From an uncultured bacterium (GTDB taxonomy: Bacteria; Actinomycetota; Coriobacteriia; Coriobacteriales; Eggerthellaceae), in assembly GCA_937890835.1 (NCBI GenBank), contig CALADF010000049.1:3830-67829 (forward strand): a stretch of DNA of 64,000 nt, written 5' to 3'. Shown in pieces: positions 8,162-62,872 of this stretch. A model generated the notes under the pieces. The model ran no database searches and was not told the DNA's origin. It saw only the letters and a list, made by a program, of their open reading frames with translations. Numbering within the stretch: the first letter of the stretch is position 1; each line of letters opens with the position of its first letter. A program made the translations under genes and the position numbers.

Positions 8162-8340
8162 TGTCTTCCTTTCGAGCAACCCGTTTGAGTTTGAAACTGA
8201 CGAGAATTATAGACCACTCGGGCGACTTGCCATAGCCGCCCGCACCTTCGCGACGAGGTCCGCACCGCCGCGCTCGCAAGAGCCGCCCGCACGTTCGAGG
8301 CGGGATCCTCCCCGCCAACCCGTGCGAACCGCCGAGGCCG

Positions 8341-37183: not shown

Positions 37184-37438
37184 ACGTGAAGGCCACCTTT
37201 GGAAGCAGGCGAGATAGCGCGGTCCCGCTGTTGGAGTCAGGCGAGGTGGCAGCTTTCCGCGCGCATGGTTCGAGGCAGGCCCAAGCTGCAAACCTGCGTA
37301 CCCGGATAACGCGAACGTGGAGAAATGGGATAGGGACGTGCTTAAGCACTGGAAGGCCGGGGGAAGAACGCCGAAAAGAACTTGCCGGATCGCCCCGATA
37401 GGATCCAGAGAAGGCAAACACCGAGGAAAGGAGACTCC

Positions 37439-40400
37439 ATGGGCGCACACGAGCGCACGGGAACGCGCAGATTCGCGTGCCTGATGATCATCTTGGCTCT
37501 TGCGGCGGGGCTTCTCCCCCTTGCATCGGGCATGGGGGCGAAAACCGCGTTCGCGAGCGGCACCGGCTACCTCGAGATAGGCGGCAGCATCCCCTACGCG
37601 GGCTACTCGACTAACTGGATGTGGGTCGACGGCGCGCCGGCGTTTTGCGCCAATCCCTCGCGCGCCACGCCCGCGAGCGGAACCTACGAAAAGCACGACG
37701 TGCTCTGGGGAGCCAACGGGCTCGGGGAAAGCGACGATCAGAGACGCTATCAAATTCGCGCGACGCTTTACCACGGATGGGGAGGCCCCGACTTCGACCC
37801 GAGCATTTGGCCGAGCACTTGGTACGACGGCAGCCCCATGACCGACGAGCGCTACATCGCGCTCGAGCACATCCTGCTCGCCGACCTCTACTCTTATGAG
37901 CTCAACTGGGCCGTCTACGGCTGCGACCCCGCATTCAAGGAGTACGTGCGATACAATGTCACCGGATACCTTGCAAGCGGCCCGGTCCCCGATTTCGAGA
38001 GCACGACCCGCTACAAGATCACCGAGACGGCCGCGCCCGTTCCGCACGACTTCAACGCGTTCATCCTGACAGCGGGTTCGTCGCAAAGCGTGTTCTCCTT
38101 CGAGAAAAACGGATTCATCGAAATCGAGAAGACCTCGGCCAACTCGGCCTTGACCGACGGCAACGCATGCTATTCACTTGAAGGCGCCGTGTTCGGCATA
38201 TACGAGAAGAGCACGGGAGACGAGGTGACGCGCATCACCACCGATGCCTCCGGGCACGCCCGAACAGGCGAGATCGCACCCGGAACCTACCTCGTCAGAG
38301 AGCTCGTCGCACCGAGCGGACATACGCTCAACACCGAGGAGCGGGAGGTGACCGTCGCCGCAGGCGCCACCGCTGTCATCACGGTGGCCGATCCGCCGCT
38401 GTCGAGCGACCTCGGGGCGACGGTGGTGAAAATCGATGCCGAAACGGGCGAAAACGCGCCGCAGGGCGATGCCACGTTCACCGACGCGCAGTTCACCTAC
38501 TCCTATTACGACGGGTACTACGGCACCGCATCCGAAGCCGCTGCTTCGGGCGCGCCTAATCGCACGTGGGTCCTGAGAACCGACTCCACCGGCACAACGG
38601 GCATCACCCTTGCGGACAAGTCGTTCAACGCGGGGGAGGAAACCCTCCCCTACCTGGTCTCGGGCGACGACCTGTACCGAAACGCGGAAGGAGCGCCGAC
38701 CGTTCCGCTCGGCACGCTGATCATCACCGAGGGCAAGGCGCCTGAAGGCTACCACGAGAGCAACCGCGTCGCGCTCGTTCGCTTCACGCAAAACGGATCC
38801 GAGGTGGAGCGCAGCGGTGACTTGGAAGACGCCTCCCGCTACGGCGTCGAAGGCGATCAGGCCGTGCTCGTGAACGAGAGCGTCGTTCGCGGAGGCGTCT
38901 CCATCGAGAAAAGGGACGCGGAAAGCCAGCTGATAACCCCGCTCGGCAACGCAAGCCTTGACGGTTGCGTCTTCGCCATCACCAACAAGTCCGACCACCC
39001 CGTCGTCGTCGGCGGAGCGGCCTTTGCGCCGGGCGACATCTGCAAAACCGTGATCGTGCAGGGCGGATCGGCGAGCACGACCCGGACCGCCCTGCCTCGA
39101 GGGACCTATGCCATACAGGAGGTTTCCGCAGGAGAAGGGTACCTGCCGACCGATGTGGAGCCGCGTCTGTTCACCGTGGAGCATGACGGTGCCGTCGTCA
39201 TGCTAGGCGCAGACGACACGCACGACCAAGCCGTCTACAACCAGGTTAAGCGAGGAGACGTCGAGCTCGTCAAAGCACGAGAGGCAGATCAGGCGCGTCT
39301 TGCGGGCATACCGTTCTCCATCACGTCGCTGACGACCGGCGAAACGCACGTCATAGTCACCGACGCGAACGGAGGGGCGAAGACCGCCTCGACATGGAAC
39401 CCCCATACGCAACGCACGAACGCCAACGACGAGGCGATCAACCCCGACGGAAGCGTCGACGAGTCGAAGCTTGACGCAAGCGCAGGCGTTTGGTTCGGAC
39501 TTACTTCCGAGGGGAAAACGACCCAGCCCGACGACAGCCTCGCCGCACTGCCGTATGACGATTACGCGATACGGGAGCTGCGCGTTGCAGCCAACGAAGG
39601 CCTCGAGCTCGTCACGCTCGAGCGCGTGAGCGTGACGCGCGACGGCTACTGCATCCACCTCGGCACCATAGACGACCAGACACCTCCCGAGATGACCATA
39701 GCGACCACCGCGCGCGACGCCCTCGACGGCGACAAGCGCGTGCTCGCCGACGTGGAAGCGCGCGTGATCGATCGCGTCTCCTACTACGGGGCCGCTCCCG
39801 GGAACTACGAGATGACCGCGAGCCTCATCGACCCCGACACCGGCGAGATCGTCGAGGTAGACGAACGCCCGCTCACGGCATCGCGCACGTTCACCGCCGA
39901 CGCGGCAACCGGTTACGTCGAAATCGAAATCGGGCCCATCGACGCGCGATCCCTCGCAGGCAAGAGCCTCGTGGTATTCGAAACCGTCAAGGACGCCGAG
40001 ACCGGCGAGGTCAAAGCCGAGCACACCGACGTCGCCGACTTCGACCAGACGGTCACGTTCGCCGATGCGCGCGTGGCGACGAGCGCATCGGACGCAGCGG
40101 ACGGCGATCGGGTCGTCGCCTGCGGACCTGCGGCGAAGGTCGTCGACACGATAACGTACACGGGGCTCGTCCCCGGCGCAAGCTACATCGCCCGCGCCGA
40201 GGTCATGCACATAATCGACGAGGCGACGGGAGCCTGCGAGCCCTTCGCGAACGAGGACGGCCCCCTAAGCGTCGAGAAGCCCTTTGCGCCCGAAGCGGAG
40301 GCAGGCGAGGTCGACGTCGAAATCTTCCCCGTCGACGTCTCCGACGAAGACGGCGCGCAGCTCGTCATGTTCGAAACCATCTACCGTGCAACCGACGACG

Positions 40401-41965
40401 GCGGGCTTCACGAGGTGGCGTCGCACCGCGACGCGCTCGATCCCGCGCAGACCGTCACCGTCGCGGCACCCGAGATCAGCACGCTTGCGCAGGACGCGGT
40501 CGACGAGGACGAAAACGTCGTCGCCGACGCAAAATCCCTCGTTCGCGACACGATCTCGTTCGCAGGTCTCGAACCCGGGCGCCCCTACGAGATCATCGGC
40601 ACCCTTGTCAACAAGAGAGCGTATGAATCGGCATATGACCAGGCAAAAAAGGAAGGGTTGGGCGACGAGGTCGCCGCAGAGAGGGCACTCGCCGCAAGCA
40701 TCGTGAAGTCCGGCCAAACGCCGGTGACGGGAAACGTCGGCTTCACGCCCGAAAGCTCCTCCGGGTCGATCGTCAACGAAATCGAGTTCGACGGGTTCTC
40801 CGTCGAGGAAGGAGCCTACGTCGTCTTCGAAACGCTGTACGCCGACGGCGTCGCCATCGCCTCCCATGCGAAGATCGATGACGAGTCGCAGACCTTTGGG
40901 CTTATCGCCACTGAAACGGAAACGCTCGCCCGCGACGGGGTGACGGGAGCCCACGAGGCAGCCGCGGACGCCGATGCCCTCGTTTCCGATAGCGTGATGA
41001 TCCGCAATGCCATCGCAGGGGAAACATACACCGCGCTCGGCTTCCTCGTCGACAGGGAGACGGGTCTGCTTCTCCTCGACGATCCCGCAGCGACGGATCG
41101 CGAGGACCTCGCGGAATTCACGCAGGAGCTCTTCACCGCACTCGGCGCCACCGTCGAGGAAGCAGGCGGCAAGATGCGCATCGCGTTCGACGATCCCGGC
41201 AAAACCCTCGACCGTGAAGCCATCGAGGCAATTTGCGCGAAGCGATCCGACATCGTGGCTCATCTAGCCGTCGCGACGTCAAGCGCCGCAGCCGAGGGAA
41301 GCGAGGTTGAGATCAAGCAGGAATTCGCCTTCGACACGAGCAAGCTCGCCGGCACCGAAGCCGTCGCCTACCAGTTCATCTTGAAGGAGGGATCGGTCAT
41401 CGACGCCCATGTCGATCTTGAATCCAACGAGCAAACCGTCGAGATACTCGCAAGCCTCATCGCAACCAACGCGTCCGATAAGCGAGACGGCGACAAAAGC
41501 ATCGCCCCCGAAAGCGGAGCCACCGTCATCGACACGGTAAGCTACGCGCACCTGGTCCCCGGCAAGACTTACGTCCTCGAAGGTGTCCTCATCGACAAGG
41601 GCACCCAGCTTCCCCTCGAGATAAACGGCGAGCAAGTTCGATCCGGCGTAGAGTTCACGCCCGAGGAACCGCAAGGAAACGTTGAGGTCGTCTTCGAGTT
41701 CGACGCATCGAGCCTCGACGGCAGCACCCTCGTCGCCTTCGAAACGCTGATCAAAAACGGCGAGACGATCGCCGCGCACGCGGATCTTGAGGACTCCGAT
41801 CAAACCGTTTACGTGGAGAAAATCCCGCGCGAGCACCCCGCAGGCGGCGGGTTGTCGAAGACGGGCGACGATGGGATCCCGATCGCGATCGCGCTCGTCT
41901 TCATCGCAACGCTGTCGACCACCGTTGTCGCCCTGGCAGCTCGCGCGAAAACGCACCGGCAGTGA
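37439..41965 (+). CDS. Cell-wall-anchored multidomain surface protein: thioester-like head, Cna-B/SpaA-like domains, five VaFE-type (Thr-Gln ester) repeats and an LSKTG sorting signal
   Basis: GGAAAGGAGA RBS and a signal peptide. AFCANP (Cys70) plus SSQSV (Gln216). Ig-like segments (e.g. GFIEIEKTSA...YLVRELVAPSGH). Five repeats end in [LV]V.FET ... H.D...D..QT. The C-terminus is LSKTGD + TM + RAKTHRQ. Confidence 0.85.
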   Translation: MGAHERTGTRRFACLMIILALAAGLLPLASGMGAKTAFASGTGYLEIGGSIPYAGYSTNWMWVDGAPAFCANPSRATPASGTYEKHDVLWGANGLGESDDQRRYQIRATLYHGWGGPDFDPSIWPSTWYDGSPMTDERYIALEHILLADLYSYELNWAVYGCDPAFKEYVRYNVTGYLASGPVPDFESTTRYKITETAAPVPHDFNAFILTAGSSQSVFSFEKNGFIEIEKTSANSALTDGNACYSLEGAVFGIYEKSTGDEVTRITTDASGHARTGEIAPGTYLVRELVAPSGHTLNTEEREVTVAAGATAVITVADPPLSSDLGATVVKIDAETGENAPQGDATFTDAQFTYSYYDGYYGTASEAAASGAPNRTWVLRTDSTGTTGITLADKSFNAGEETLPYLVSGDDLYRNAEGAPTVPLGTLIITEGKAPEGYHESNRVALVRFTQNGSEVERSGDLEDASRYGVEGDQAVLVNESVVRGGVSIEKRDAESQLITPLGNASLDGCVFAITNKSDHPVVVGGAAFAPGDICKTVIVQGGSASTTRTALPRGTYAIQEVSAGEGYLPTDVEPRLFTVEHDGAVVMLGADDTHDQAVYNQVKRGDVELVKAREADQARLAGIPFSITSLTTGETHVIVTDANGGAKTASTWNPHTQRTNANDEAINPDGSVDESKLDASAGVWFGLTSEGKTTQPDDSLAALPYDDYAIRELRVAANEGLELVTLERVSVTRDGYCIHLGTIDDQTPPEMTIATTARDALDGDKRVLADVEARVIDRVSYYGAAPGNYEMTASLIDPDTGEIVEVDERPLTASRTFTADAATGYVEIEIGPIDARSLAGKSLVVFETVKDAETGEVKAEHTDVADFDQTVTFADARVATSASDAADGDRVVACGPAAKVVDTITYTGLVPGASYIARAEVMHIIDEATGACEPFANEDGPLSVEKPFAPEAEAGEVDVEIFPVDVSDEDGAQLVMFETIYRATDDGGLHEVASHRDALDPAQTVTVAAPEISTLAQDAVDEDENVVADAKSLVRDTISFAGLEPGRPYEIIGTLVNKRAYESAYDQAKKEGLGDEVAAERALAASIVKSGQTPVTGNVGFTPESSSGSIVNEIEFDGFSVEEGAYVVFETLYADGVAIASHAKIDDESQTFGLIATETETLARDGVTGAHEAAADADALVSDSVMIRNAIAGETYTALGFLVDRETGLLLLDDPAATDREDLAEFTQELFTALGATVEEAGGKMRIAFDDPGKTLDREAIEAICAKRSDIVAHLAVATSSAAAEGSEVEIKQEFAFDTSKLAGTEAVAYQFILKEGSVIDAHVDLESNEQTVEILASLIATNASDKRDGDKSIAPESGATVIDTVSYAHLVPGKTYVLEGVLIDKGTQLPLEINGEQVRSGVEFTPEEPQGNVEVVFEFDASSLDGSTLVAFETLIKNGETIAAHADLEDSDQTVYVEKIPREHPAGGGLSKTGDDGIPIAIALVFIATLSTTVVALAARAKTHRQ

Positions 41966-43376: not shown

Positions 43377-44658
43377 GAGGAATGCAGCCTCCCGACACCA
43401 GAAGAATCAACGACGTGATCGAAGCGAGAAAAATAGAGTCGCATCGATCGAGCAGTCCACCATGTCCGGGCATGATCGTACCCGAATCCTTGAATCCGGA
43501 ATTACGCTTGACGCGGCTTTCCGCCAAATCGCCAAGCACTTCCATCAGACCGCACACGATGCCGAACGCGATGGCCGCAGGAATGCTCATGGTCACACCC
43601 GGCACGAACGAGATGGCGCACCAACAAGCAGCTGAGCCGACAAGACCCGCGATGAAGCCCTCCCAGCTCTTCTTCGGACTCGTGCGAGGCGCGAGCTTGT
43701 GCTTGCCGAACTTGCTCCCCACCAGATAAGCGAAGGAATCGTTGGCCCAGACGCTCACGAACACGAGCAACACCACGACGCCACCCCACGGCTCGGGCAA
43801 AGATTCGCGGATCACGACGAACCCGCAGAGCAGCAAGCCGGTATAAGCCGCCCCGAAAAAGCTTACGCCGACATCGGGAATGCGCGCCCGCAGCCAAAAC
43901 ACATACCACACGAGCAGCGCAAGCAGCAGCGCCAAAGAAACCGTCAACGCTCCGACGGGTCCGTAGAGAAACACGCTCAGGGGATAGAGCGCTGCGGCGA
44001 TGATGCCGAGCATCTCGTTAGGGAGCTTGGCATCGGAGCGCAACATGTAGTAGAACTCGCCCGCGCTGATACCGGCGACCAACATGAGCATGATCACCAT
44101 AGGCCAACTACCTGCGAGGACGCAGATAATGGTCAGGGCCGTGTACACAGCACCCGTGCGGAAACGCACTTGAAAGCCCGAGGGATTCTTCAGCTTTTCG
44201 GGAGCAAACTTCGTCGCGTTCTGTTTGACGCGCTGCTTTTTCTCCGCACGACGTTCGCGCTTCTCATCCTTCTCGGCACGCTCGTCAGGCGTTATGTCGT
44301 AATGCCAGGGAGGGCCTTCAGGGGCCTGCGCAGGATCCCTCACCAGCTGGGGCGCATCAGGCGACAAGCCCTCGCCCATGTCGACGAGATCCTTCGTCGT
44401 GGGACGGCTGGGGAACGGCGCAGGCTGAACGCCCCCCTCGGAGCGATACCGAGCCGCGCGCTCCTTCAGCCGAGCGCGTGCAGCGGCCTGCTTGGCTTTC
44501 TCCTCTTCCGAAAACGCAGAAGCGTTCAACGAACTCACACTCCCCCGAAACGCCGCTCGCGCTTTTGGTATGCGAGAATGCAGCGTAGCAGCTCGTATCG
44601 ATCGAAATCGGGCCAGAGCACGTCGGTGCAAACGAACTCCGAATAGGCGATCTGCCAC
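43363..44658 (-). CDS. cdsA: Phosphatidate cytidylyltransferase with a charged N-terminal extension (start uncertain)
   Basis: The C-terminal ~280 aa are a typical CdsA (SWEGFIAG...GDLAESRVKRNSGFKDSG...PGHGGLLDRCDS). The longest ORF overlaps uppS by 124 nt. A GTG at 44538 gives a GTGA overlap with the uppS stop. Confidence 0.8.
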   Translation of the reverse strand: MADRLFGVRLHRRALARFRSIRAATLHSRIPKARAAFRGSVSSLNASAFSEEEKAKQAAARARLKERAARYRSEGGVQPAPFPSRPTTKDLVDMGEGLSPDAPQLVRDPAQAPEGPPWHYDITPDERAEKDEKRERRAEKKQRVKQNATKFAPEKLKNPSGFQVRFRTGAVYTALTIICVLAGSWPMVIMLMLVAGISAGEFYYMLRSDAKLPNEMLGIIAAALYPLSVFLYGPVGALTVSLALLLALLVWYVFWLRARIPDVGVSFFGAAYTGLLLCGFVVIRESLPEPWGGVVVLLVFVSVWANDSFAYLVGSKFGKHKLAPRTSPKKSWEGFIAGLVGSAACWCAISFVPGVTMSIPAAIAFGIVCGLMEVLGDLAESRVKRNSGFKDSGTIMPGHGGLLDRCDSIFLASITSLILLVSGGCIPHGFF

Positions 44659-45311
44659 AAAAGGAAGTTGGAAACACGCATCTCCCCCGAGGTTCGAATG
44701 AGCAATTCAGGATCGGGGATGCCGCCCGTATACAAGCCGCGCTCGAATATCTCCTCGGATAGCTCGGGCATCTTCTGCGACGTCTCGGCCTCGAGCACCG
44801 CATAGCGCATGCACGCCTCGACCGCGTGAAGTATCTCTTGACGGGCGCCGTAGTTCACGGCGACGACAAGCGTCATCCCGTCGTTGTCGCGCGTTTTGCG
44901 CCAAGCCTCGTCGAAAGCCTCGCGCGTCTCTGCAGGAAGCGCCGAAAGGTCGCCGATCGTCATCACCCTGACATGCTCTTCATGCAGGCCATCGACCTCC
45001 GCGAGCATGGTTTTGGCGAACAAGTCCATGAGCCCGATGACCTCGTCTTGGGGCCTACGCCAGTTCTCGGTGGAGAAAGAATAGATCGTCAGATAGCGCA
45101 CGCCGAGATCCGATGCGCAGCGAATGGTCTCGCGCACCGCCTCGATGCCCGCCTTATGCCCCTTCAACCGATTGAGTGCGCGCTTTTTCGCCCATCTCCC
45201 GTTGCCGTCCATAATGACGGCGATATGCTCCGGGACGGCCGCTGCATCAAGCTCGCTAAGATCGATATCCGCAGGCGGATCGGGGAATATGTACTCGAGC
45301 GTCTTGTTCAT
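44535..45311 (-). CDS. uppS: Undecaprenyl-diphosphate synthase (cis-isoprenyl transferase)
   Basis: HIAVIMDGNGRWAKKR...LTIYSFSTENWRRP...RTSGEMRVSNFLLWQ. ATG 45311 chosen; the track start at 45332 is a TTG. Confidence 0.9.
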   Translation of the reverse strand: MNKTLEYIFPDPPADIDLSELDAAAVPEHIAVIMDGNGRWAKKRALNRLKGHKAGIEAVRETIRCASDLGVRYLTIYSFSTENWRRPQDEVIGLMDLFAKTMLAEVDGLHEEHVRVMTIGDLSALPAETREAFDEAWRKTRDNDGMTLVVAVNYGARQEILHAVEACMRYAVLEAETSQKMPELSEEIFERGLYTGGIPDPELLIRTSGEMRVSNFLLWQIAYSEFVCTDVLWPDFDRYELLRCILAYQKRERRFGGV

Positions 45312-45586
45312 CTTACTGGCGAGGATTCGCAAAGGCTAGACATCGCAATCCTGATGTAGACGTCTAGCAAACCGCCCCAACGACCACCAAGCGCGTGACA
45401 GCACCCTCGCAGACCCCTTGTCTCCTTTGCTCTCAACCCAACAACGTAAGGCAACTGAAACCCTGCGATAACTATTTTCTGCAAGATTATCTTGTTCAGT
45501 ATACGCGAAACGAACAGTCATCCCCGAAATGCGCAAAGATCGGCTTTTCGAATACATGCGAACCAACTCCAAGCGAACAGTAACGC

Positions 45587-47134
45587 TTAATCAAATCGTT
45601 TCACCAAATCAATGAGCTGCTGCCGAGAGTGGACGCCCAACTTAGCATATATATTCCTCGTATGGTAATTAACCGTACCAGCGGCGATATAGAGTTCGGA
45701 TTGAATAAACGCAGACGAACAACCTCGCGCGAGCAAACGGAAGACATCCACTTCGCGACGAGAGAGAGAAAAGGATGACGCGACAACATCACATTTCTCC
45801 TCCAGGGTCATTTCATCAGAACAGACAACCTCCCCATCTTTTCGATTGGAGGAGATTCCGTCATGCGATGCAAGTTCCAGGGAAGGATCAGGATTAATCT
45901 CATCCCTCGTATCCGAACCTGTTGAACCCAACCAATTCGCGCAAACGACTTGATCTTCCCAACCGCTTGCTTCCGAAGGCCTTACGTCTTTTTGAACCTT
46001 TTGGACCTTTACTATAGCCACAGAAAGAGCAACGGCAAGCACCTCCACGCCAACGAGGACAACGAACAGAGACGCTTGCGAGTTCAGCAGAACGCCATAC
46101 GCAAAACTCACGCGAGATGCAACATACCAGCCCGCACTGTTCAGCAACGTGCCAACTACACGCATAAGAGCAGACACTCTCAGCGCATCGAGCGAGAAGA
46201 ACTCGGCGAAACCCACCGCCACAATAAACAACATAACTTCAACGCCCAGCTCACCTATAGAGATGAACTGAGCCAAAGGTGCGGCATCGCCCAAAACAGT
46301 ATACGGAACGAGAACTGCCACAAGAAAGCACACGGGAACGACGAATGCCGACACAAAACCAGACCGCTCCATACGAAAAACGGCAACCCCGCTCACTACG
46401 ATAGGAACAAATGCCACAAGCGCATAGAAAACATATGTGTAACCGCTCGACGATGAAAAAAAATCAAGAAAACCGGACGACATGTAAAACACAGCGATGG
46501 GGAAAAGTAACGTAAGATAGTTTAAGGGACGATCTTTCGAGCTGCACTCAAGCTCATCGCGAGGCCATGGCTCCAACCGGACCAGATGAAACAGCACGCC
46601 AGAAACGACTGGTGAAACTACCGTGGCGACACGCAAAGCGTTACCCGGCAAGTACATCAGAGTTACGCACACTCCAACCGACATAGCCATGAGGGTCGGA
46701 AAGCTCCCAAGGGCGACGCCTAGTCCCACTCGCCGATACGCAACTATCCATTGCTGAGCCATTACGCCAGAACCGACGCCCGTAAGGATACCGCCAACCC
46801 ATATAAACACGACAGCGAGATATGAGGGGGGATCCGCCATAAGCACCACGGTTCCCACCACCATCGAAAAAGGAGCTGCAATTTTCGCAAAAGACGCCGT
46901 AAGAAATTCAACGCGACCGAACGGCGCAAACGAAATAGCTAAAAGCGTCAGCGACATGACAAGAGCGCTCACAAGGTAAGGTCCACTCATGAGAGACACA
47001 GGTGCTGCAGCCTCTATGCCAGCAGTCTGAGCATAAAAGAGCAGATAGATCCACGAAAGAAGAAACACCACACCCGTGTAAACGGGCGGTACGCCGATAA
47101 ACTCACTGCGCCGGATTCGACAATCCTCCATCAT
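45587..47134 (-). CDS. Membrane-embedded LuxR/GerE-family transcriptional regulator (~12 TM N-terminal domain plus C-terminal HTH)
   Basis: C-terminus LSRREVDVFRLLARGCSSAFIQSELYIAAGTVNYHTRNIYAKLGVHSRQQLIDLV (GerE HTH). About 12 hydrophobic helices precede it. ATG 47134 with an AGGGGG RBS. Confidence 0.8.
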   Translation of the reverse strand: MMEDCRIRRSEFIGVPPVYTGVVFLLSWIYLLFYAQTAGIEAAAPVSLMSGPYLVSALVMSLTLLAISFAPFGRVEFLTASFAKIAAPFSMVVGTVVLMADPPSYLAVVFIWVGGILTGVGSGVMAQQWIVAYRRVGLGVALGSFPTLMAMSVGVCVTLMYLPGNALRVATVVSPVVSGVLFHLVRLEPWPRDELECSSKDRPLNYLTLLFPIAVFYMSSGFLDFFSSSSGYTYVFYALVAFVPIVVSGVAVFRMERSGFVSAFVVPVCFLVAVLVPYTVLGDAAPLAQFISIGELGVEVMLFIVAVGFAEFFSLDALRVSALMRVVGTLLNSAGWYVASRVSFAYGVLLNSQASLFVVLVGVEVLAVALSVAIVKVQKVQKDVRPSEASGWEDQVVCANWLGSTGSDTRDEINPDPSLELASHDGISSNRKDGEVVCSDEMTLEEKCDVVASSFSLSRREVDVFRLLARGCSSAFIQSELYIAAGTVNYHTRNIYAKLGVHSRQQLIDLVKRFD

Positions 47135-47164
47135 GACACCCCCTGGAATCAAGCGGTCCCCACT

Positions 47165-47203
47165 CCGCCTCATGTGGTCTCATTATGAGACCACATGAGG
47201 CGG
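47165..47203. repeat. 39-bp perfect palindrome (19-bp arms, 1-nt centre) in the divergent LuxR/MFS control region
   Basis: CCGCCTCATGTGGTCTCAT-T-ATGAGACCACATGAGGCGG. I verified this by writing out the reverse complement. Confidence 0.95.
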
Positions 47204-47412
47204 GCCTTTCGATCGAAGAGAAAAACAATAAAGAATTAATGGGTACTTCCATAACACTAGCGTCGTCACCAATGCTCCACTTTTCGACCTGATCAAACAA
47301 ACAATACGTGACCACAATGATTGTGCGGGGCATAAAACAGCGCCTGCCCCTATTCTCCAAATCGCAACAGCGGATTCGAGAGACGAATCTGCGCGACACG
47401 AAGGGAACTCTC

Positions 47413-48606
47413 ATGGAACTCAACATCAGCAACGGAAGGAAGTGGCTTGCTTTCATAGCATTAGCCCTGTCCTCCATGTGCACATTAGGCGATATGGTCA
47501 TAAATCCCATCGCCGCCGCTTTGTTCGAGGTCTTTGCGGGCCAGTCGGAGGCGTTGATCAACTTCTCCATTACTGGACCGGCACTTGTAGGCCTCCCTTT
47601 TGGCGTCCTCGCAGGCGTGCTGTGCGACCGCATAGATAAAAAAATCGTTATGGTTACAGGCTTTGCAATCTTCGTCGTCTCAGCCTGTTTTGGGGGCGTT
47701 GACAATCTACCCCTATTTGTTACGCTTCGTTGCTTCGCCACTGGCGTAGGCTGGGGCATTACGAATACCGCCGCTCTTTCCATACTGGCAGTCATGTACG
47801 CCGACGAAGCGGAGCATGGCAAGTTTGTTGGCTGGTACAACATGGTTATGTCAATCATGGGTGCGCTCATGGCTTTCGTAGCTGGCATCCTCGCAGTAGG
47901 AGGATGGCAACACGCCTTCTGGACTTACTACATCTCCATCCCCGTTCTCGTTATGCTCATCATTTTCCTTCCGAGCATGAGACCCACTTCTCATTCCAGC
48001 AACTCTAAAGAGAAAGAGTCTGGAGCGGCTGACGCTGGCTGGTGGAAGGCTCTCGTCCCTCTCACTATCCAAGTGTTCTTTGTTGCCCTTGGCTTTTTTG
48101 TTTCCCTGTATATGATCGCCTTATATGTCACAGACGCAGGTATTGGCGACGAAGCATTTATAGGTGTCCTTAGCTCCATCTCCACCATTGCCACCGCTAT
48201 CGCCTCCGCCGTATTCGGTGCTCTCTATGCAAAATTCAAGAACGCGGTTTACTTGCCCGGTTTGTTCGTCATGGGCGCATGCTATCTCGTCATGAGCTTT
48301 TTCCCCAGTCAGATAACCGCAGTCGTATGCATCGCATTACTGGGTCTCATGTGGCCAACTTACTTTTGCTACTTTTACGCACGCTGCACCGAGCTCGTCC
48401 CAGCATCAAAGGCAGGCACGGCCACATCTATCGTCGCATTATCGGACGGGCTTGCCGCAACAGCATGCTCGTACCTTCTCACTGGCTCCATGAGCATCAT
48501 GGGGGTCGATGCAGTCGGCGCGTGGATCATCCCGGGCGTCATTTTGCTCGCCACGGGCATTATCTCCGCCATTGCGTTTTTGGCATCACGCAAGAAGAGT
48601 AGCTAA
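47413..48606 (+). CDS. MFS transporter (paralog 1)
   Basis: 12-TM profile. AAGGGAA RBS before ATG 47413. About half the residues are identical to the 50526..51791 product over aligned blocks (e.g. ATGVGWGITNTAALSIL). Confidence 0.8.
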   Translation: MELNISNGRKWLAFIALALSSMCTLGDMVINPIAAALFEVFAGQSEALINFSITGPALVGLPFGVLAGVLCDRIDKKIVMVTGFAIFVVSACFGGVDNLPLFVTLRCFATGVGWGITNTAALSILAVMYADEAEHGKFVGWYNMVMSIMGALMAFVAGILAVGGWQHAFWTYYISIPVLVMLIIFLPSMRPTSHSSNSKEKESGAADAGWWKALVPLTIQVFFVALGFFVSLYMIALYVTDAGIGDEAFIGVLSSISTIATAIASAVFGALYAKFKNAVYLPGLFVMGACYLVMSFFPSQITAVVCIALLGLMWPTYFCYFYARCTELVPASKAGTATSIVALSDGLAATACSYLLTGSMSIMGVDAVGAWIIPGVILLATGIISAIAFLASRKKSS

Positions 48607-48720
48607 CCCATTCCGCCAATGTTGAGATAGCGCTCCGTTCCAGCATATATCACATAGCGGAACACTGAAGCACAGCGATCCACGCCACCCCGAAACAGCA
48701 CGTCCGACAAGGAGAGCATC

Positions 48721-50352
48721 ATGACGTATGCAGATATCGTAATCAAAAGTTCCTCCATATTCACCGCAGAAACAATCGGGACTATCGAAGGCGCTGTCAT
48801 TGTTTCTGGCGAGGAGATCGTCGCCGTAACAAACACCGACAACGCCGACCAGTACGTAGGGCCAGCCACGTGCGTAATAGAATGCGGAGACAGACTAGTC
48901 TGCCCCGGGTTCAACGACGCACACACCCACTTCATTCAAAATGGGGTCATGAAAGACGAGAGCTACACGCTTTCACTCGAAGGAGTCACATCGGAAAGCG
49001 AAGCCATCGAAAAAATCAAACGCTTCGCCAAAGAACATCCTGACAATGCGTGGATAGTCGGATGCGGGATTAACTTTGACGATTGGAGTGAAGAGCCAAG
49101 CAAAGAGATACTTGACTCTGCCATCCCCGACCGCCCAGCATACTTCGCCTCCTGGGATATGCATGTAGGTTGGATGAACTCACTCGCCCTTGAAGCCGCA
49201 GGCTACACGAGAGACACCCCCGATCCCGAAGGCGGTATCATCGTACGAGACGAGAATGGCAATCCGACGGGAATCGGAAAAGAACCGCCAGCGAACGATC
49301 CCGTATGGGGTATGGCCAATTTAGCAGCAGACATGGATCGCGCACTCGGAAGCGCTATCAAGGAAGCACTGACCTATGGCGTTACAGCTACTGGATGCGT
49401 CTGGCCCTATGGGGGAATTCCCGAAGACGAAAACATCCGAATTCTTCAGGAGTTTGAACGAGAAGGAAAGCTCCCCATACGCGTTAGCTGCTTTCTAAAG
49501 CTAGAACCAGGCCTCGAGAATGCAAAGAAATACGAACCCCTCCTGCGGTCCGACAATCTTCGCTTTGCAGGCCTGAAGCAGATCACCGATGGCGTTTGCG
49601 AAGCGCACACCGCCTACCTCACGGAACCCTACGCCGACGACCCAACAACATGCGGAGAGCCAACCATCAAATTCGACGATCTCCGCGCCATGGTTGAAGA
49701 AGCGAATTCTCATGGGTACTCCGTAAGACTGCATGCCATAGGAAATGGCACAGTCAAGCAAGCGCTCAACGTATTCGAAGCCGTTCGAGAGAAGAACGGA
49801 GTCAATCGGCTACGTAATTCCATCGAACATATAGAATCCTGCTGCCCCGAAGATATCGGCCGTTTCGTAAACCTCGGGATCATCCCCTCAATGCAGCCCA
49901 TTCACTCGGTGCTCAACGTCGACGGATACCCGAAACTTCTTGGCGAAAAATGGGTACCTTACATGTGGCCCATAAAGTCCATCATCGAAACGGGCGCCAC
50001 TGCGGCCTTCGGAACCGACGCTCCCGTGTGGAATCTCAACCCCATGGAAGGACTATACGCCGCCATCACACGTCAACAACCATGGGACGGATACCCCGAA
50101 GGCGGGTTCGTACCTGAACAATGCATAAGCATCGGCGAAGCTCTCAAAGCGTATACCTATGGTTCTGCCTACGTTGAAAACTTCGAAAACCGCATAGGAA
50201 CGCTACACCAAGGAAAACTCGCGGATATTGTGATCATGGATCGCAATCTCATGACAGCTAAGCCCGACGAAATCCTAGAAGCAAAGGTTCTCTACACCAT
50301 CATCGGCGGCAAGATCGTTTTCCAAGCAGAAGATGCAGATTTGATTAAGTAG
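48721..50352 (+). CDS. Amidohydrolase-3 family metal-dependent hydrolase (YtcJ/COG1574-like)
   Basis: AAGGAGAG RBS. CPGFNDAHTHF (HxH metal site) and C-terminal FGTDAPV...GKLADIVIMD motifs. Confidence 0.8.
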   Translation: MTYADIVIKSSSIFTAETIGTIEGAVIVSGEEIVAVTNTDNADQYVGPATCVIECGDRLVCPGFNDAHTHFIQNGVMKDESYTLSLEGVTSESEAIEKIKRFAKEHPDNAWIVGCGINFDDWSEEPSKEILDSAIPDRPAYFASWDMHVGWMNSLALEAAGYTRDTPDPEGGIIVRDENGNPTGIGKEPPANDPVWGMANLAADMDRALGSAIKEALTYGVTATGCVWPYGGIPEDENIRILQEFEREGKLPIRVSCFLKLEPGLENAKKYEPLLRSDNLRFAGLKQITDGVCEAHTAYLTEPYADDPTTCGEPTIKFDDLRAMVEEANSHGYSVRLHAIGNGTVKQALNVFEAVREKNGVNRLRNSIEHIESCCPEDIGRFVNLGIIPSMQPIHSVLNVDGYPKLLGEKWVPYMWPIKSIIETGATAAFGTDAPVWNLNPMEGLYAAITRQQPWDGYPEGGFVPEQCISIGEALKAYTYGSAYVENFENRIGTLHQGKLADIVIMDRNLMTAKPDEILEAKVLYTIIGGKIVFQAEDADLIK

Positions 50353-50525
50353 CCCCCTCACTCCTTTATCGCCAACGAAACGAACTACGCAGCAAATTAC
50401 CCCCATTATCTGGTGCTAGGCGTTCGCCACCCCAACGAACACCTAGCACCCAAGGCGGAGCCTTGGAACCGCTTAAGACAAAAGGCCAGCTGCCGAAGAC
50501 GAATCTTCGCAGACTGAAAGGCGAC

Positions 50526-51791
50526 ATGATGACTTCATCCCGCGATCTGCCAAAATGGCAACTCATCCTCGCGCTTACAGCGCTGTTCCTTTCCTCGATG
50601 TGCACAATGGGCGATCTTGTCGTAAGCCCCGTTGCTGCCAGCATCTACAATTCGTTCGACGATTCTCCCGAATGGCTTGTCAATCTCGGAGTAACCGGCC
50701 CAGCACTTTTCGGGCTCCCCTTCGGTCTCGTTACGGGTTTTCTTTGTGATAGGGTCGACAAAAAGAAAATCATGGTCACAGGGTTCACCATATTCGCCAT
50801 ATCCGCCGTATTCGGAGCCATGTACGATAACGTCTACTATTTTGTCAGTATGAGACTACTCGCCACAGGAGTAGGATGGGGAATCACAAACACCGCAGCC
50901 CTTTCAATCCTCGCCGACTTATTCGTAGATGAAACTGAACACGGAAAGTATGTAGGCTGGTACAATTCCGCAATGTCAATCATCGGGGCCGCGCTTTCTT
51001 ACGGCGCGGGCATTGTCGCCAATGGCACATGGCAAAACGCTTATGTCATGTACGCGATGGCCATTCCAGTGTTAATAATGCTTATCGCTTTTCTTCCCAA
51101 CTTTCCGCCTTCGAGACCCACGGCAGAAGCTGTAAAAGAAATCGAGGGCGTCTCCATGAGCTCCGCGGCAGCTCTCGCACGTGCAATGTTCCACCAGAGA
51201 AGCAAAGAAGTTGAAGAGGGGGGTTGGTGGAGAAAACTCGCCTCCCTGTCGCTCCAAGTGTTCTTAGTAGCAACCCTTTACTTCATCATCCTCTATCTCA
51301 TATCGATTTACGTTGCCTACACTGGCGTAGGGGACGAATCTTACTCGGGAACGCTCATGTCTATCATGACGATCTGCACCGCTACAAGCTCCCTAATGTT
51401 CGGAAGAGTCTACAAGCACCTCAAAGACCGAGTATACATTCCCGCCCTTTTTATCATCGGAGCCGTATTTCTCATGCTCGCATTTTTCCCCATTGCCCCT
51501 GTTGTCACCGTCGCACTAGCAGCCGCAGGCATTGCTTGGCCATTCTACTTTTGCTATTTCTACACGCACTGCACACAAATTGTTCCCACATCAAAGCAGA
51601 GCACCGCAACGAGCATAGTGGCTGCGGCGAACGGACTAGCGGTTGCAGCGAGTTCGTTTCTCCTGATGGGAGCGATCGACGCTACAGGCGGAAAATGCCT
51701 TGATGCCTACCAGCTGTTCGGCTTTGCGATGATAACCATCGCCTCCGTCTCCGCGATCTCCTCTATTTCGAAGCGAGCAAGCTCCAACTAA
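50526..51791 (+). CDS. MFS transporter (paralog 2)
   Basis: GAAAGG RBS before ATG 50526. 12-TM profile. Paralogous to the 47413..48606 product. Confidence 0.8.
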   Translation: MMTSSRDLPKWQLILALTALFLSSMCTMGDLVVSPVAASIYNSFDDSPEWLVNLGVTGPALFGLPFGLVTGFLCDRVDKKKIMVTGFTIFAISAVFGAMYDNVYYFVSMRLLATGVGWGITNTAALSILADLFVDETEHGKYVGWYNSAMSIIGAALSYGAGIVANGTWQNAYVMYAMAIPVLIMLIAFLPNFPPSRPTAEAVKEIEGVSMSSAAALARAMFHQRSKEVEEGGWWRKLASLSLQVFLVATLYFIILYLISIYVAYTGVGDESYSGTLMSIMTICTATSSLMFGRVYKHLKDRVYIPALFIIGAVFLMLAFFPIAPVVTVALAAAGIAWPFYFCYFYTHCTQIVPTSKQSTATSIVAAANGLAVAASSFLLMGAIDATGGKCLDAYQLFGFAMITIASVSAISSISKRASSN

Positions 51792-51794
51792 CGC

Positions 51795-51842
51795 AAAAAA
51801 ACACCTATGGCCGCGCAGGCGAGCAATCGTCTACGCGGCCAT
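51795..51842 (-). terminator. Rho-independent terminator after frr
   Basis: Minus strand: AUGGCCGCG-N18-CGCGGCCAU followed by GGUGUUUUUUU. Confidence 0.55.
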
Positions 51843-51865
51843 ATACCCAGCTGAAAAGGAGGTCG

Positions 51866-52429
51866 TTAGATCTCCATGACCTCCGCTTCCTTCTTCTTGA
51901 AATGCGCATCGCACTCGGCGATGAACTTATCCGTGAGCTTTTGCACCTCGTCCTCGGCGCGCTTGGCCTCGTCCTCGGGCAGGTTGTCGTTCTTCTTCGC
52001 CTTATCGATGGCGGTGTTGGCGTCGCGACGAGCGTTGCGCACGCCGACGCGCGCCTCCTCGACAAAGCCCTTGCACTGCTTGACCAGCTCACGACGACGC
52101 TCCTCGGTGAGCGCGGGGAACGGCAAGCGAATGACCGATCCGTCGTTGTTGGGCGTCACGCCCAGATCGCTCTCGAGAATGGCATGCTCGATGGCGCGCA
52201 GCGTGCCCTTGTCCCACGGCTCGATGACGAGCAGATGGGCGTCGGGGCTCTTCACGCCCGCCATCTGGTTAATCGGCGTCGGAACGCCGTAATAGTCTAC
52301 CTTGATGCGATCGAGCACCATCGCGTTGGCGCGACCCGTGCGAACGGACGCGAAGTTGTCGGAAAGCGCGGAGAGAACCTTCTCCATGCGTTCCTCAGCC
52401 TGCATCAAAATCTCATCAACGTCAGCCAT
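51866..52429 (-). CDS. frr: Ribosome recycling factor
   Basis: 187 aa: LSDNFASVRTGRANAMVLDRIKVDYYGVPTPINQMA...IRLPFPALTEERRREL. Confidence 0.95.
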   Translation of the reverse strand: MADVDEILMQAEERMEKVLSALSDNFASVRTGRANAMVLDRIKVDYYGVPTPINQMAGVKSPDAHLLVIEPWDKGTLRAIEHAILESDLGVTPNNDGSVIRLPFPALTEERRRELVKQCKGFVEEARVGVRNARRDANTAIDKAKKNDNLPEDEAKRAEDEVQKLTDKFIAECDAHFKKKEAEVMEI

Positions 52430-52535
52430 TTATGCTTCCTTTCCCTGTTATGCCGAAACGAAGCGGCGCCGCGCCGATTCGCATCACGTCATTGCCCTTC
52501 GCGCACTTCGCCGCGCGCCATTGCGCGGCATGCGA

Positions 52536-53252
52536 TTATTCTACCGTGGTTCCCACGTCCTCGCCCTTGAGGGCGCGCTGGATGTTGCCGCGCTTGGTCA
52601 GATCGAACACGATCATCGGCACGTCGTTGTCCATGCACAGCGAAGTCGCGGTTGCGTCCATGACGTTGAGCCCGCGGTTGAGAACCTCCATGTAGGAAAT
52701 GCGGTCGAAGCGCTTCGCGTCCGGGTTTTTCTTCGGGTCGGAGTCGTACACGCCATCGACCTTCGTCGCCTTCATGAGGCAATCGACGTCGAGCTCGCAC
52801 GCGCGCAGCGCCGCAGTGGTATCGGTGGTGAAGTACGGGTTGCCGGTGCCCGCCGCGAGAATGACCACGCGGCCCTTCTCGAGATGACGGATGGCACGAC
52901 GGCGAATGTAGGGCTCCGATACCTCTTGCATGTTGATGGCGCTTTGAACGCGCGAGAAGACACCGTGACGCTCGAAGGAATCCTGCAGGGCAAGAGCGTT
53001 CATGACGGTGGCGAGCATACCGATATAGTCGGCCTGCGCGCGATCCATGCCCTCGGCTGAGCCGGCCAGGCCGCGGAAGATATTGCCGCCGCCGACGACA
53101 ACGGCGAGCTGAACGCCGTCGCGAACGATCTCAGCGATCTCTTCGGCCAAATCGTCAACGACCTTGGGGTCGATCCCGTAGCCCAGATCTCCCGCGAGCG
53201 CCTCGCCGGAAAGCTTGAGCAGCACGCGATCGTACTTGTATTCCTTCGACAT
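52536..53252 (-). CDS. pyrH: UMP kinase
   Basis: [13 protein letters not shown]...[10 protein letters not shown]...[12 protein letters not shown]. Confidence 0.95.
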
Positions 53253-53455
53253 GAATAACGTCCCTTCGGTCGCAATCGTTGTTAAATCTTATACATATTA
53301 ACCGAAAGGACGACATCGGCGCACCCGCTGCACGCAAAATCGCAAACATACGAACGAATCGCAGCATCTCACGCGAGGGAAGGCCGGCCCGATTCGAGAG
53401 CCGGCCGCAAACCGAAAAGGCCCTGCGGTAGACAAAACGTCAAGCTGAGACAGTG

Positions 53456-61329: not shown

Positions 61330-62178
61330 TTATTTCCGCAGAGCGCGGATCTTCACGCTCATGTCGAGCGGTTTGGCCGAAAACGGCGCCGTGCTCGCCA
61401 TGCCGTCGACGCCCGTGGCCGCATAGGCGGCGGCGTTGCCCAGGTTGATCCCGCCCGTCGCGATGAGCGCGACGCGCGGGTTGACGGCGCGAATCGACTC
61501 GACGAGGGAGGCGAGCTCATCGACGGGCACCTTGTCGAGCTGGATGCCATCCACCTCTGTTCCCGCGAGGACGAGCGCGTGCTCGGCGTCAGCTTCGACG
61601 AAGAGCTTCTTCTCAACGCAGCGCGCTTTGATGTCGGGGATCCTCTCGACCAGCGCTTCGAAGCCTCCCATGAACTTGTAGTGATGTTCGAACACGAGAA
61701 CCGTCTCGGACAGCCCGAGTCGATGCGGATACGCGCCGCCTATCACAACCGCATACGTGAGCAGGTCCTTCACGCCGTTCATGCTCTTGCGCGTGGTGAG
61801 AACCTCGCAACGAGGGTTCGACGAATGCGCCGCGTCCACCATGGAGCGCGTCTTCGTGGCAACGGCCGAAAGATGGTCGAACACGTTCAGGCACGCCTTC
61901 CAGGCCGCATGCAGGTTCTCCGCTCCACCGCGCACCACCATGAAGGACTCACCTGCAGCGATGCGATCGCCGTCTGAGCGTGCGCTCACCACCTCGCAAC
62001 CGAGCTTCGACATCATCCGTCGCACCACCTCGATACCCGCGAGGACGCAATCCTCGCGGGTGAAATACTCCATCTCACCCAACTCGCCGGAAATGCCGAG
62101 CACCTCGCACGTGAGGTCGATGTAAGGCAGATCTTCCGTGATGAAATAATCAATGCGCGCATCGGAAAAATACTGCAT
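61330..62178 (-). CDS. modD: ModD protein (quinolinate phosphoribosyltransferase-like)
   Basis: FITEDLPYIDLT...TRKSMNGVKDL...GGAYPHRLGLSE...ATGGIN. Start trimmed to ATG 62178 (GGAGAAAGGA RBS). Confidence 0.75.
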   Translation of the reverse strand: MQYFSDARIDYFITEDLPYIDLTCEVLGISGELGEMEYFTREDCVLAGIEVVRRMMSKLGCEVVSARSDGDRIAAGESFMVVRGGAENLHAAWKACLNVFDHLSAVATKTRSMVDAAHSSNPRCEVLTTRKSMNGVKDLLTYAVVIGGAYPHRLGLSETVLVFEHHYKFMGGFEALVERIPDIKARCVEKKLFVEADAEHALVLAGTEVDGIQLDKVPVDELASLVESIRAVNPRVALIATGGINLGNAAAYAATGVDGMASTAPFSAKPLDMSVKIRALRK

Positions 62179-62492
62179 GGTGCCGTCCTTTCTCCAAGGT
62201 AATCCGCCGCACAGCGCGACCGCCTGCAAGCCGCAAAAGGGAACCAACATCTCGACGCAGGCGGTCGAAGCCGCGCTTAAGCCCATGATTCACCAACAAA
62301 GATAAACCATTTCGAGGGCAGCGGGGCATTTTAGCGAGATCAACCTCGAATCAACCCCGATTCATACCCTCTCAACCCTCCGATAGCACGTTTTTAACTA
62401 TAAAACGCTCGCTTCGTACCTCGAATCGACCGCGTAAGGTCGGAGATCGGGGAGAGCCGTACCTCATTTAGGACGAGGTCGTTAAAAACATC

Positions 62493-62520
62493 TTGGCAAA
62501 TTCCACGGCGATGCTATAAT
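62493..62520 (+). promoter_or_regulatory. Near-consensus sigma-70 promoter (TTGGCA-N16-TATAAT) with no downstream ORF
   Basis: Read directly: -35 at 62493..62498 and -10 at 62515..62520. Confidence 0.5.
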
Positions 62521-62526
62521 CATTAG

Positions 62527-62642
62527 CGATTTCAGAGAAGCATTTTGGCTTCAGACAGATAAGGATTCTGTTTTTGGAGGGGACAGATTCCTTTGTCTTT
62601 CAAGAGCCGTGACCTGCGTGCAGGTCACGGCTCTTGGCTTTT
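62527..62642 (+). ncRNA. Candidate ~116-nt sRNA (family unknown)
   Basis: Bounded by the promoter above and a 16-bp GC-rich terminator hairpin (62602..62635) followed by GGCUUUU. There is no ATG inside. An internal ~15-bp hairpin presents a UUUUGGAGGGG loop. Confidence 0.45.
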
Positions 62643-62872
62643 CATGGAAAGGTCGGGGCGTGGGACGTGGTCGGGATCGGGCGCTGCGAGCCCTTTCCCC
62701 TTCGGGACGGCCTTTTCCGGTCGAGATTCGGCGTTATGCGCGGCTTTCCACGGGAAACCGCGCGGATTTCGACCCGAAGCGCTCACATCGCCCTCCCAGA
62801 GACCACGCCAAGGCTCATATCGCGACATCTCGACCAGGCAGCACCGAGACCCCTCAGCGGCAGACCCCGCAT

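Follow-up and report, generated by a model that had tools for sequence, protein, structure and literature searches.

A lower-GC regulator, transporter and amidohydrolase block in place of the frr-uppS spacer of an Eggerthellaceae bacterium, with frame-breaking repeat variants in its regulator gene

The DNA analysed here is a 64,000-nucleotide stretch of contig CALADF010000049.1 (assembly GCA_937890835.1, an uncultured Eggerthellaceae bacterium), hereafter called the window. Between its frr and uppS genes lies a block of 6,555 bp (45311..51865), which replaces the 106-bp spacer found at the same place in L116, an empty-site strain of the same species. The block holds a gene for a LuxR/GerE-type regulator with 12 transmembrane (TM) helices and, divergent from it, genes for a transporter of the major facilitator superfamily (MFS1), a YtcJ-like metal-dependent amidohydrolase, and a second transporter that is a paralogue of the first (MFS2). 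We think it probable that this block is a horizontally acquired, substrate-inducible uptake-and-hydrolysis cassette, and that slippage at repeats has disabled its regulator in about half of the strains sampled. It stands above a routine islet on account of the replacement of a spacer without mobility machinery, the recurrence of the genes as a unit, a sweep-like low diversity, and the slippage-disabled regulator.

The block is set apart by its composition. GC content was scanned in 1-kb windows over the 64 kb, and the seven windows from 45001 to 52000 formed a trough, with values of 0.511-0.528. The remaining 57 windows had a mean of 0.634, a standard deviation of 0.024 and a minimum of 0.569, which gives a z of -4.8 for the trough; taken as a whole, the block has a GC content of 0.52, against 0.63 elsewhere in the window. 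The deficit is located at synonymous positions, the GC content at third codon positions (GC3) being 0.51-0.61 in the four module genes versus 0.72-0.82 in dxr, cdsA, uppS, frr, pyrH and htrA. A previous reading of the window, made without database searches (the sequence-only reading), had described a lower-GC module and named a lack of difference from the flanks in GC and codon usage as a refutation; the difference found is strong.

Open reading frames (ORFs) and profile searches confirmed the gene content given in that reading, a LuxR gene divergent from MFS-amidohydrolase-MFS. The regulator gene, luxR (45587..47134, minus strand, 515 amino acids [aa]), was assigned from its Pfam GerE match and an AlphaFold2 (AF2) model. 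On the plus strand follow MFS1 (47413..48606; Pfam MFS_1, E = 1e-36), the amidohydrolase gene (48721..50352, 543 aa; Pfam Amidohydro_3, E = 8e-94) and MFS2 (50463..51791; Pfam MFS_1, E = 2e-32). The ORF of MFS1 opens at 47308, and its likely start is the ATG at 47413, from the start annotated for the orthologue in contig L103. The block is flanked by uppS-cdsA-dxr on one side (uppS, 44535..45311) and by frr-pyrH on the other (frr, 51866..52429; frr-pyrH tract, 51866..53260), all on the minus strand.

To place the site among relatives, one genome per species was scanned with the window Frr, yielding 80 Coriobacteriia loci, 78 of which had both frr and uppS. In all 78, the distance between the two genes was -1 to 484 bp, and none of the four module genes was found at the site. 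By Frr, the relatives are Eggerthellaceae, and the closest Frr in the genome collection (88%) is that of Enterorhabdus sp. P55. Within the species of the window, exact-protein look-ups retrieved metagenome contigs that are 97.7-99.96% identical to it over 11-17 kb, all with the block. In L116, frr is followed by the 106-bp spacer and then by uppS. Its UppS is identical to that of the window; at the DNA level, the two agree at 98.4% over the 9.8 kb towards dxr and at 96.7% over the 8.9 kb towards frr. Because the homology between L116 and the window ends at 45310 and restarts at 51866, the segment 45311-51865 replaced the entire spacer, with the frr stop codon and the uppS start codon as junctions. 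No remnant of the spacer was detected in the insert (local alignment score of 23, versus a shuffle mean of 24.6). The spacer of L116 is homologous to that of L005, a neighbouring species, and the empty state is therefore ancestral. We conclude that the break of synteny between frr and uppS, which lie less than 500 bp apart in 78 of 78 relatives, is real, and that the module is polymorphic in presence at this site, being absent from these relatives and from a strain of the same species. The first point had been made from the sequence, and the second had been named there as a check; of the limits then given to the module, 45333-51865, the right one stands and the left one is moved to 45311 by the comparison with L116.

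The replacement reached up to the expression signals of the two flanking genes. A hairpin followed by a run of seven T (51795..51843, minus strand), oriented to terminate frr, lies inside the block, and the spacer of L116 holds a different hairpin, GGCGCCG...CGGCGCC, which is the ancestral frr terminator. The claim that frr keeps its own terminator is thus wrong: the hairpin and its T run came with the block, and the ancestral terminator went with the 106-bp spacer. On the other side, uppS starts with ATG in the window and with GTG in the empty site, so that its translation-start region is block-derived. The native ribosome-binding motif of uppS, GAGGTG, was lost by the replacement, and uppS is now preceded on its own strand by luxR, at a distance of 276 bp. 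No terminator-like site was found in a scan of the minus strand between luxR and uppS; uppS-cdsA-dxr may therefore receive read-through from luxR, and the expression of these essential genes is possibly coupled to that of the regulator.

Diversity was measured pairwise among 11 distinct contigs, with no formal sweep test applied. The four module genes differed by 0.02-0.16% and the two intergenic regions of the module by 0.39% and 0.64%, versus 0.50% in uppS, 0.98% in cdsA and 1.9% in dxr. Within-module diversity is thus 10-100 times below that of the flanks, and the block is present in about 20 of the about 21 longest contigs. Because of this low diversity, the history of the block reads as a single recent gain, probably followed by a recombination-borne spread through most of the species.

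The frr-pyrH tract (51866-53260) has a history of its own. Two haplotypes, about 10% apart, coexist in the species, and their divergence starts 18 nt from the insert edge; no divergent tract was found on the uppS side of the insert. Haplotype 1, that of the window, matches L005 at 97.8%, whereas L005 and the window share just 71-87% identity in the remaining aligned segments. L005 was for this reason taken as a different species and rejected as a same-species empty site. Haplotype 2 is found in the empty-site strain L116 as well as in several insert-bearing strains. Contigs L004/L012 and L006 change haplotype within pyrH, so that the region is a recombination mosaic. The pattern reads as at least one probable interspecies recombination in pyrH-frr, ending at the insert. 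The haplotype-1 tract may have been imported together with the block, by homology-facilitated illegitimate recombination anchored in pyrH-frr, or it may have arrived later.

No gene for an integrase, a transposase or conjugation was found in the block, which is filled by its four genes and short spacers. Neither direct nor inverted terminal repeats were found at its ends, no tRNA gene was found at 35000-60000, the insert DNA had no phage match, and the amidohydrolase had no plasmid match above 37% identity. The sequence-only reading had likewise seen no integrase, transposase or flanking direct repeats, and the gene and repeat scans bear it out.

The same arrangement, a regulator divergent from MFS-amidohydrolase-MFS, was found in four further chromosomal contexts in Coriobacteriia, making five with the window. 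It lies between URO-D/glycyl-radical genes and an IS110 transposase in L097, between yraN and rnhB-rplS in L098-100, between an S8 peptidase and a thioesterase in L101, where the second MFS gene is missing, and between DAHP synthase and a TetR/CN-hydrolase pair in L103, an Ellagibacter isourolithinifaciens-like genome. Across these copies, identity to the window genes is 71-78% for the amidohydrolase, 58-78% for the MFS proteins and 46-62% for the regulator. Judging from these contexts, the cassette is inherited as a unit, with all its genes co-conserved. The IS110-family transposase gene of L097 (13663-14772) lies 0.6 kb past the second MFS gene, and this is the only copy outside the window that stands beside a transposase; in the same contig, luxR (6909-8371) is split into 74 + 387 aa by a frameshift outside any repeat. 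The GC content of the cassette is below that of its flanks in L097, L098-100 and L101 (in L098, for instance, 0.57-0.64 versus 0.68-0.77), and equals that of the host in L103. Since the Ellagibacter-like copy has host GC, low GC is not intrinsic to the cassette genes. Together with the window copy being the lowest of all (0.52), this points to a putative unsampled donor of lower GC as the source of the window copy.

We turn to the products of the block. The regulator has a GerE domain (PF00196) at its C-terminus (E = 4.5e-16, 58.7 bits versus a cut-off of 23.5, residues 469-523 of the longest ORF, which has 528 aa and starts at 47173). In the AF2 model (43 homologues, pLDDT 82.6), 12 long helices (residues 17-384) are followed by a disordered linker (387-439) and then by a GerE helix-turn-helix domain of four to five helices (444-513); a hydropathy scan concurs with a 12-helix membrane domain. 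This succession of 12 helices, linker and GerE domain is the architecture of DadR, CadR and HcdR of Eggerthella lenta, and the tie with the membrane-embedded LuxR regulators of Eggerthellaceae, proposed from the sequence, was right. DadR, CadR and HcdR are substrate-specific activators of adjacent enzymes, the inducer of each being the substrate of the neighbouring enzyme; DadR needs both its membrane domain and its DNA-binding domain, and of the 83 transmembrane LuxR-type regulators of one E. lenta strain, 74 span the membrane with 10-12 helices (Dong et al. 2022, PMC9734109). On all features that can be tested from sequence, the window regulator fits this family, and by analogy with its studied members we infer that it would be an activator of the divergent operon. 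A Foldseek search with the regulator model returned MFS proteins for all of the top 50 matches, weakly so (E from 2e-3 to 2e-2, TM-scores of 0.21-0.53, rmsd of about 10 Å), and a profile comparison of the regulator with the neighbouring MFS proteins gave a probability of 0.2%. The sensor domain could be a very distant derivative of a transporter.

The luxR/MFS1 intergenic region contains a perfect palindrome (19+1+19 nt, 47165..47203), which is a candidate operator, or a candidate RNA hairpin if transcribed. From it, the luxR ATG is 31 nt downstream in one direction and MFS1 about 210 nt downstream in the other, and the start of the longest luxR ORF overlaps it. The palindrome is unique in the window, where 0.31 half-site matches are expected by chance, and the intergenic region folds with a z of -5.7. 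Among strains, variation is limited to its central base (L004, L012) and to one arm position (L016). The search for Rfam matches (riboswitch or other known RNA) in the leader gave none at E ≤ 1. In the L101/L102 and L103-L105 cassettes, the same intergenic region has a different palindrome, CCATAAG-N3-CTTATGG. This motif is not in the window, and a shared operator motif was therefore rejected.

Two slippage-prone repeats are present in luxR. A poly-T tract of eight residues (T8; 46456..46463 on the minus strand, A8 on the plus strand) is located at codon 224, at the end of TM7, and is the sole homopolymer of at least 8 nt in the window. A (TC)5 repeat (45760..45769, minus strand) at codon 456, where the DNA-binding domain begins, is the sole dinucleotide repeat of at least 5 units. 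The T8 allele, in frame, is that of the window and of contigs from 5 samples (L004, L006, L012, L013 and L115). A T9 allele, giving a 294-aa product without GerE, was found in 7 samples (L001, L002, L003, L014, L015, L016 and L119). L010 combines T8 with (TC)6 and has a 511-aa product without a GerE match; two cluster members of 511 aa are present on 3 and 2 contigs, one of which is a 2.58-Mb NCBI contig. In the collection, the ON product of the window is present in 19 blocks and the commonest OFF product in 15. As read from these predicted products, repeat-length changes disable the regulator in about half of the sampled strains. If the regulator works as DadR does, the T9 and (TC)6 types should both abolish induction. 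RNA polymerase slips on runs of at least nine A or T, so that T9 could be leaky rather than null.

The distribution of these alleles among strains was then considered. T9 occurs on at least three backgrounds defined by single-nucleotide polymorphisms (SNPs). The window and L006, both T8, form the centre of a star from which T9-bearing arms are 4-7 SNPs off in 9.4 kb; overall, T8 and T9 contigs are 0-7 SNPs apart in 9.4 kb, and L014, with T9, belongs to a clade that is otherwise T8. This apparent homoplasy of T9 fits repeated slippage. None of the OFF strains seen has a broken amidohydrolase or MFS1 gene. A scan of metagenome contigs for additional poly-T samples yielded no new contig. Tentatively, slippage at T8 and (TC)5 might constitute a reversible contingency switch of the cassette, a form of population bet-hedging on a diet-, host- or drug-derived amide; the repeat changes would then be both reversible and of adaptive value, a suggestion that we make short of calling it probable.

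Length variation of short runs was seen elsewhere too. MFS2 has a G6 tract (51218..51223, plus strand), with a frame-shifting G5 form in some strains; in L002/L111, the G5 form splits MFS2 into 267 + 177 aa, each fragment being present on 4 contigs. L002 has both the split MFS2 and a T9 (OFF) regulator. Short intergenic C/G runs at 42142 and 50352 vary by 1 nt between strains, in agreement with clades for the former. Homopolymer variation is thus not confined to luxR.

The amidohydrolase matches Amidohydro_3 (PF07969) with 316 bits (cut-off, 29.7), over positions 2-472 of the 472 of the profile and residues 52-534 of the protein. Residues H68, H70, K286, H338, H370 and D433 are invariant in 40 homologues down to 32% identity. 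An HxH-K-H-H-D set marks binuclear amidohydrolases, which hydrolyse amides, lactams or esters, as opposed to mononuclear deamination. This points to the predicted enzyme being a hydrolase rather than a deaminase. Its AF2 model has a pLDDT of 95.5, and its sole close structures are 3ICJ and 3IGH, two uncharacterised Pyrococcus proteins of 25-26% identity (Foldseek E = 7.6e-35 and 6.2e-34, TM-scores of 0.73-0.84), whose TIM-barrel fold and composite domain are both present in the model. Characterised enzymes align poorly with it, with query-normalised TM-scores of at most 0.55, and none of the NCBIfam models came near its cut-off. Profile and structure comparisons therefore leave the enzyme outside the characterised orthologous groups, membership of which the sequence-only reading had named as a refutation if the role were housekeeping. 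The N-terminus, MTYADIVIKSSSIF, leads directly into the first beta-strand of the model, and no signal peptide was evident by inspection.

The two transporters match the MFS_1 profile with 127 and 113 bits (cut-off, 33.4). MFS2 is about 49% identical to MFS1, their paralogy being visible in direct repeats and in the alignment, and its similarity to TIGR00895, a subfamily of aromatic acid/H+ symporters, is weak (1e-13) and falls far short of the cut-off. More is learned from the neighbours of other amidohydrolases. Homologues at 46-49% identity have an APC amino-acid permease gene immediately upstream in three unrelated contexts (L106/L107, L108/L109 and L121), and in L106 and L107 the permease stop overlaps the start of the homologue. 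These APC-paired homologues also adjoin a regulator of GerE or PucR type, and in L108 the homologue is followed by an MFS and a CitMHS carboxylate transporter. From the pairing with APC permeases, an amino-acid-linked amide is therefore favoured as the putative substrate, with moderate-to-low confidence; N-acyl and N-aryl amino acids, conjugates and related lactams would all qualify. The cleavage of bile-acid-taurine amides by YtcJ-like PF07969 enzymes of Bilophila (PMC13081902) is a further hint. The function originally proposed, in which an amide or lactam would be sensed, imported and hydrolysed and a product exported, thus stays plausible.

The scheme that we favour is the following. The 12-TM LuxR-type protein would sense a small molecule at the membrane and turn on the MFS1-amidohydrolase-MFS2 operon, probably via the intergenic palindrome. 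The compound would be brought in by one of the MFS proteins, and the presumably cytoplasmic binuclear metallo-amidohydrolase would cut a C-N bond, amide or lactam, most likely in an amino-acid-linked amide such as an N-acyl amino acid or conjugate; the other MFS protein would export the product or import a related substrate. As to its origin, the block would have entered by one illegitimate or homology-facilitated event in which the whole frr-uppS spacer was replaced, and would then have been carried through most of the species by recombination. Finally, about half of the strains sampled would have an inactive regulator through length changes of T8 and (TC)5.

A number of points speak against parts of this scheme. 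The MFS subfamily matches are all far below cut-offs, and allow neither direction nor substrate to be assigned; the PDB search made with MFS1, the sole MFS protein searched, gave no informative match. Because orthologous cassettes carry another palindrome, an operator role for that of the window is a guess. No donor was identified: the nearest relative of the amidohydrolase, in the Ellagibacter-like L103, is just 78% identical and its cassette has the GC of the host, and L103 was rejected as the donor on these grounds. The homoplasy of T9 could be due to recombination moving one T9 mutation between backgrounds. Orthologous regulators have TTC codons, without the T8 tract, and the repeats may thus be a by-product of low GC3, not a selected switch. 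The last point leads to the reading in which the cassette is real and its repeat variants are loss-of-function decay at mutational hot spots in a dispensable module. The orthologues are also devoid of (TC)5, and low GC3 alone could make both repeats; the G6-to-G5 frameshift of MFS2, seen in several contigs, fits decay as well as switching; other species have regulators truncated at positions outside repeats (P0221; L097, with its split luxR); and one strain, L116, lacks the whole module. We nevertheless find decay rather unlikely. The amidohydrolase and MFS1 have stayed intact in the OFF strains, a module that is nearly fixed and of very low diversity speaks for recent positive selection and not for neutrality, and T8 persists on near-identical T9 backgrounds (4-7 SNPs per 9.4 kb), which is expected of two-way switching.

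The cassette could also be thought of as a detoxification or resistance unit, with the MFS proteins as efflux pumps and an amidohydrolase that inactivates a toxic amide or lactam, be it a drug or an antibiotic. The transporters do show weak matches to TIGR00880, Bcr/CflA, MdtL and LmrA, all far below cut-offs, and a sweep-like high frequency in human-gut populations is expected under selection by drugs or xenobiotics. We consider this improbable, however: the amino-acid permeases paired with homologues of the enzyme are importers, and CitMHS stands beside one such homologue, an arrangement that resembles nutrient use; the enzyme is presumably cytoplasmic, so that the compound would have to be imported first; and its plasmid matches stay at or below 37% identity. 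Still less credit can be given to the idea that sequencing or assembly errors in a homopolymer account for T8 versus T9 and that the regulator is intact in all strains. Homopolymers are error-prone, and a T7 frameshift allele, seen on one contig of 1.7 Mb, was discounted as a genuine allele because dxr and htrA are frameshifted on that contig as well, probably by long-read error, a point that again counts against switching. T9, however, was found in 7 samples, on contigs whose names (NODE_, k141_) are typical of at least two assemblers; T9 short-read contigs show no stray indels in housekeeping genes over the aligned 9.4 kb; an identical 294-aa product is indexed in 15 blocks of the collection, and (TC)6 recurs in the 2.58-Mb NCBI genome contig. 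Lastly, if the block were ancestral at the site and lost from L116, its odd composition would be a gene-specific constraint, as a cassette GC below the flanks in four of five host contexts (the window, L097, L098-100 and L101) might suggest. This has already been largely refuted and has hardly any probability left: the spacer is short in 78 of 78 relatives and in the sister species L005, that of L116 is homologous to that of L005 and hence not a deletion scar, the cassette is at host GC in the Ellagibacter-like genome, which means that low GC is not intrinsic to it, and module diversity is 10-100 times below that of the flanks.

Two features of the window lie outside the block. A second and milder GC dip was seen at 62001-63000 (0.569 versus about 0.63). 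In addition, the uppS-cdsA-dxr-rseP string is interrupted at another place, between dxr and the gene for the M50 protease (rseP), by a gene for an adhesin of 1,527 aa with thioester/isopeptide domains (TED_2, SpaA, TQ; 37382-41965, plus strand, opposite to dxr and rseP). Of the 80 relatives, 25 have an adhesin homologue close to frr, and the adhesin gene is the most diverged one in the comparison with L005 (71-75% nucleotide identity).

Returning to the favoured scheme, an acquired uptake-and-hydrolysis cassette, several consequences can be drawn. Very low diversity together with near-fixation suggests that the cassette was recently favoured in human guts, and hence that the compound is probably common there. 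The cassette would extend the 12-TM LuxR family from reductases to a unit of transporters and amidohydrolase. Coriobacteriia have dozens of 12-TM LuxR regulators, very few of them with a known ligand, and the amidohydrolase belongs to an orphan gut clade that spans the Coriobacteriia. As the inducer is the enzyme substrate for the three regulators studied, a LuxR reporter could reveal the substrate of the orphan amidohydrolase. Strains with identical enzyme genes may differ in phenotype through the repeat variants, which matters for the prediction of metabolism from metagenomes. A regulator controlled by slippage would add a commensal to the examples of contingency regulation and, if the contingency reading is true, no earlier metabolic regulator with repeat-driven phase variation would have been described from gut Coriobacteriia. 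If uppS-cdsA-dxr depend on luxR read-through, switching would reach these essential genes too.

It remains to compare the block with known systems. With classical genomic islands and mobile elements it shares an atypical composition and a presence/absence polymorphism; it differs from them in having no mobility genes, no flanking repeats and no tRNA attachment site. Its low diversity within far more diverse flanks, in strains from different hosts, resembles the gene-specific sweeps that recombination spreads in human gut bacteria (for example PMC12916291), where the swept element is a core-gene allele, whereas here it would be a newly acquired insert, followed in about a dozen contigs.

The enzyme is, like other YtcJ-like amidohydrolases (PF07969, COG1574), a full-length match to the family with the six metal ligands and the fold. 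The characterised members (D-aminoacylases, NfdA, AtzC, PhnM, CodA and imidazolonepropionase; PMC13081902), in contrast, give no match to it, or matches far below cut-offs. A particular case is that of the YtcJ-like PF07969 enzymes of Bilophila wadsworthia, which are metal-dependent bile salt hydrolases (metalloBSH) cleaving bile-acid-taurine amides (Cui et al. 2026 preprint, PMC13081902). MetalloBSH are secreted proteins of about 101 kDa with an extra C-terminal domain, largely confined to Desulfovibrionaceae; the sulfonate-binding residues of BwBSH1 are Ser194, Gln381, Asn443 and His544, and the enzymes form a sequence similarity network cluster at 31% identity or more (PMC13081902). The bond they cleave is the amide between an acyl group and an amino-acid-like amine (PMC13081902). 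They have the Pfam family, the gut host and the binuclear metal site in common with the window enzyme, which differs in its size of 543 aa, in the absence of an evident signal peptide and in its pairing with transporters. The window enzyme was not placed among the metalloBSH on grounds of size and domains, Amidohydro_3 filling residues 52-534 of its 543 aa and leaving no extra C-terminal domain, compared with the about 101 kDa of metalloBSH.

For the regulator, the closest systems are the 10-12-TM LuxR activators DadR, CadR and HcdR. In both cases a 12-helix domain, a linker and a C-terminal GerE domain are found, and the window gene likewise adjoins its presumed target genes, from which it is divergent, in an Eggerthellaceae host. 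The genes adjoining theirs encode molybdenum- or flavin-dependent enzymes, whereas those of the window encode two MFS proteins and a metal amidohydrolase. The window luxR also has two slippage-prone repeats with frame-breaking variants, and the terms 'frameshift' and 'homopolymer' are absent from PMC9734109. A literature search on repeat-driven phase variation in Eggerthellaceae found nothing comparable.

The repeats themselves are best compared with the simple-sequence-repeat contingency loci of Neisseria, Campylobacter, Bordetella and the Mycobacterium tuberculosis complex. Those loci are surface or restriction-modification genes of pathogens, whereas the window gene encodes the presumed activator of a metabolic cassette in a commensal Actinobacterium, and its tracts are short (8 nt and 5 units). 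As in those loci, the repeats lie within the coding sequence and their length toggles the frame between strains; and both states are common on close backgrounds, with, by sample, 6 T8, 7 T9 and 1 (TC)6.

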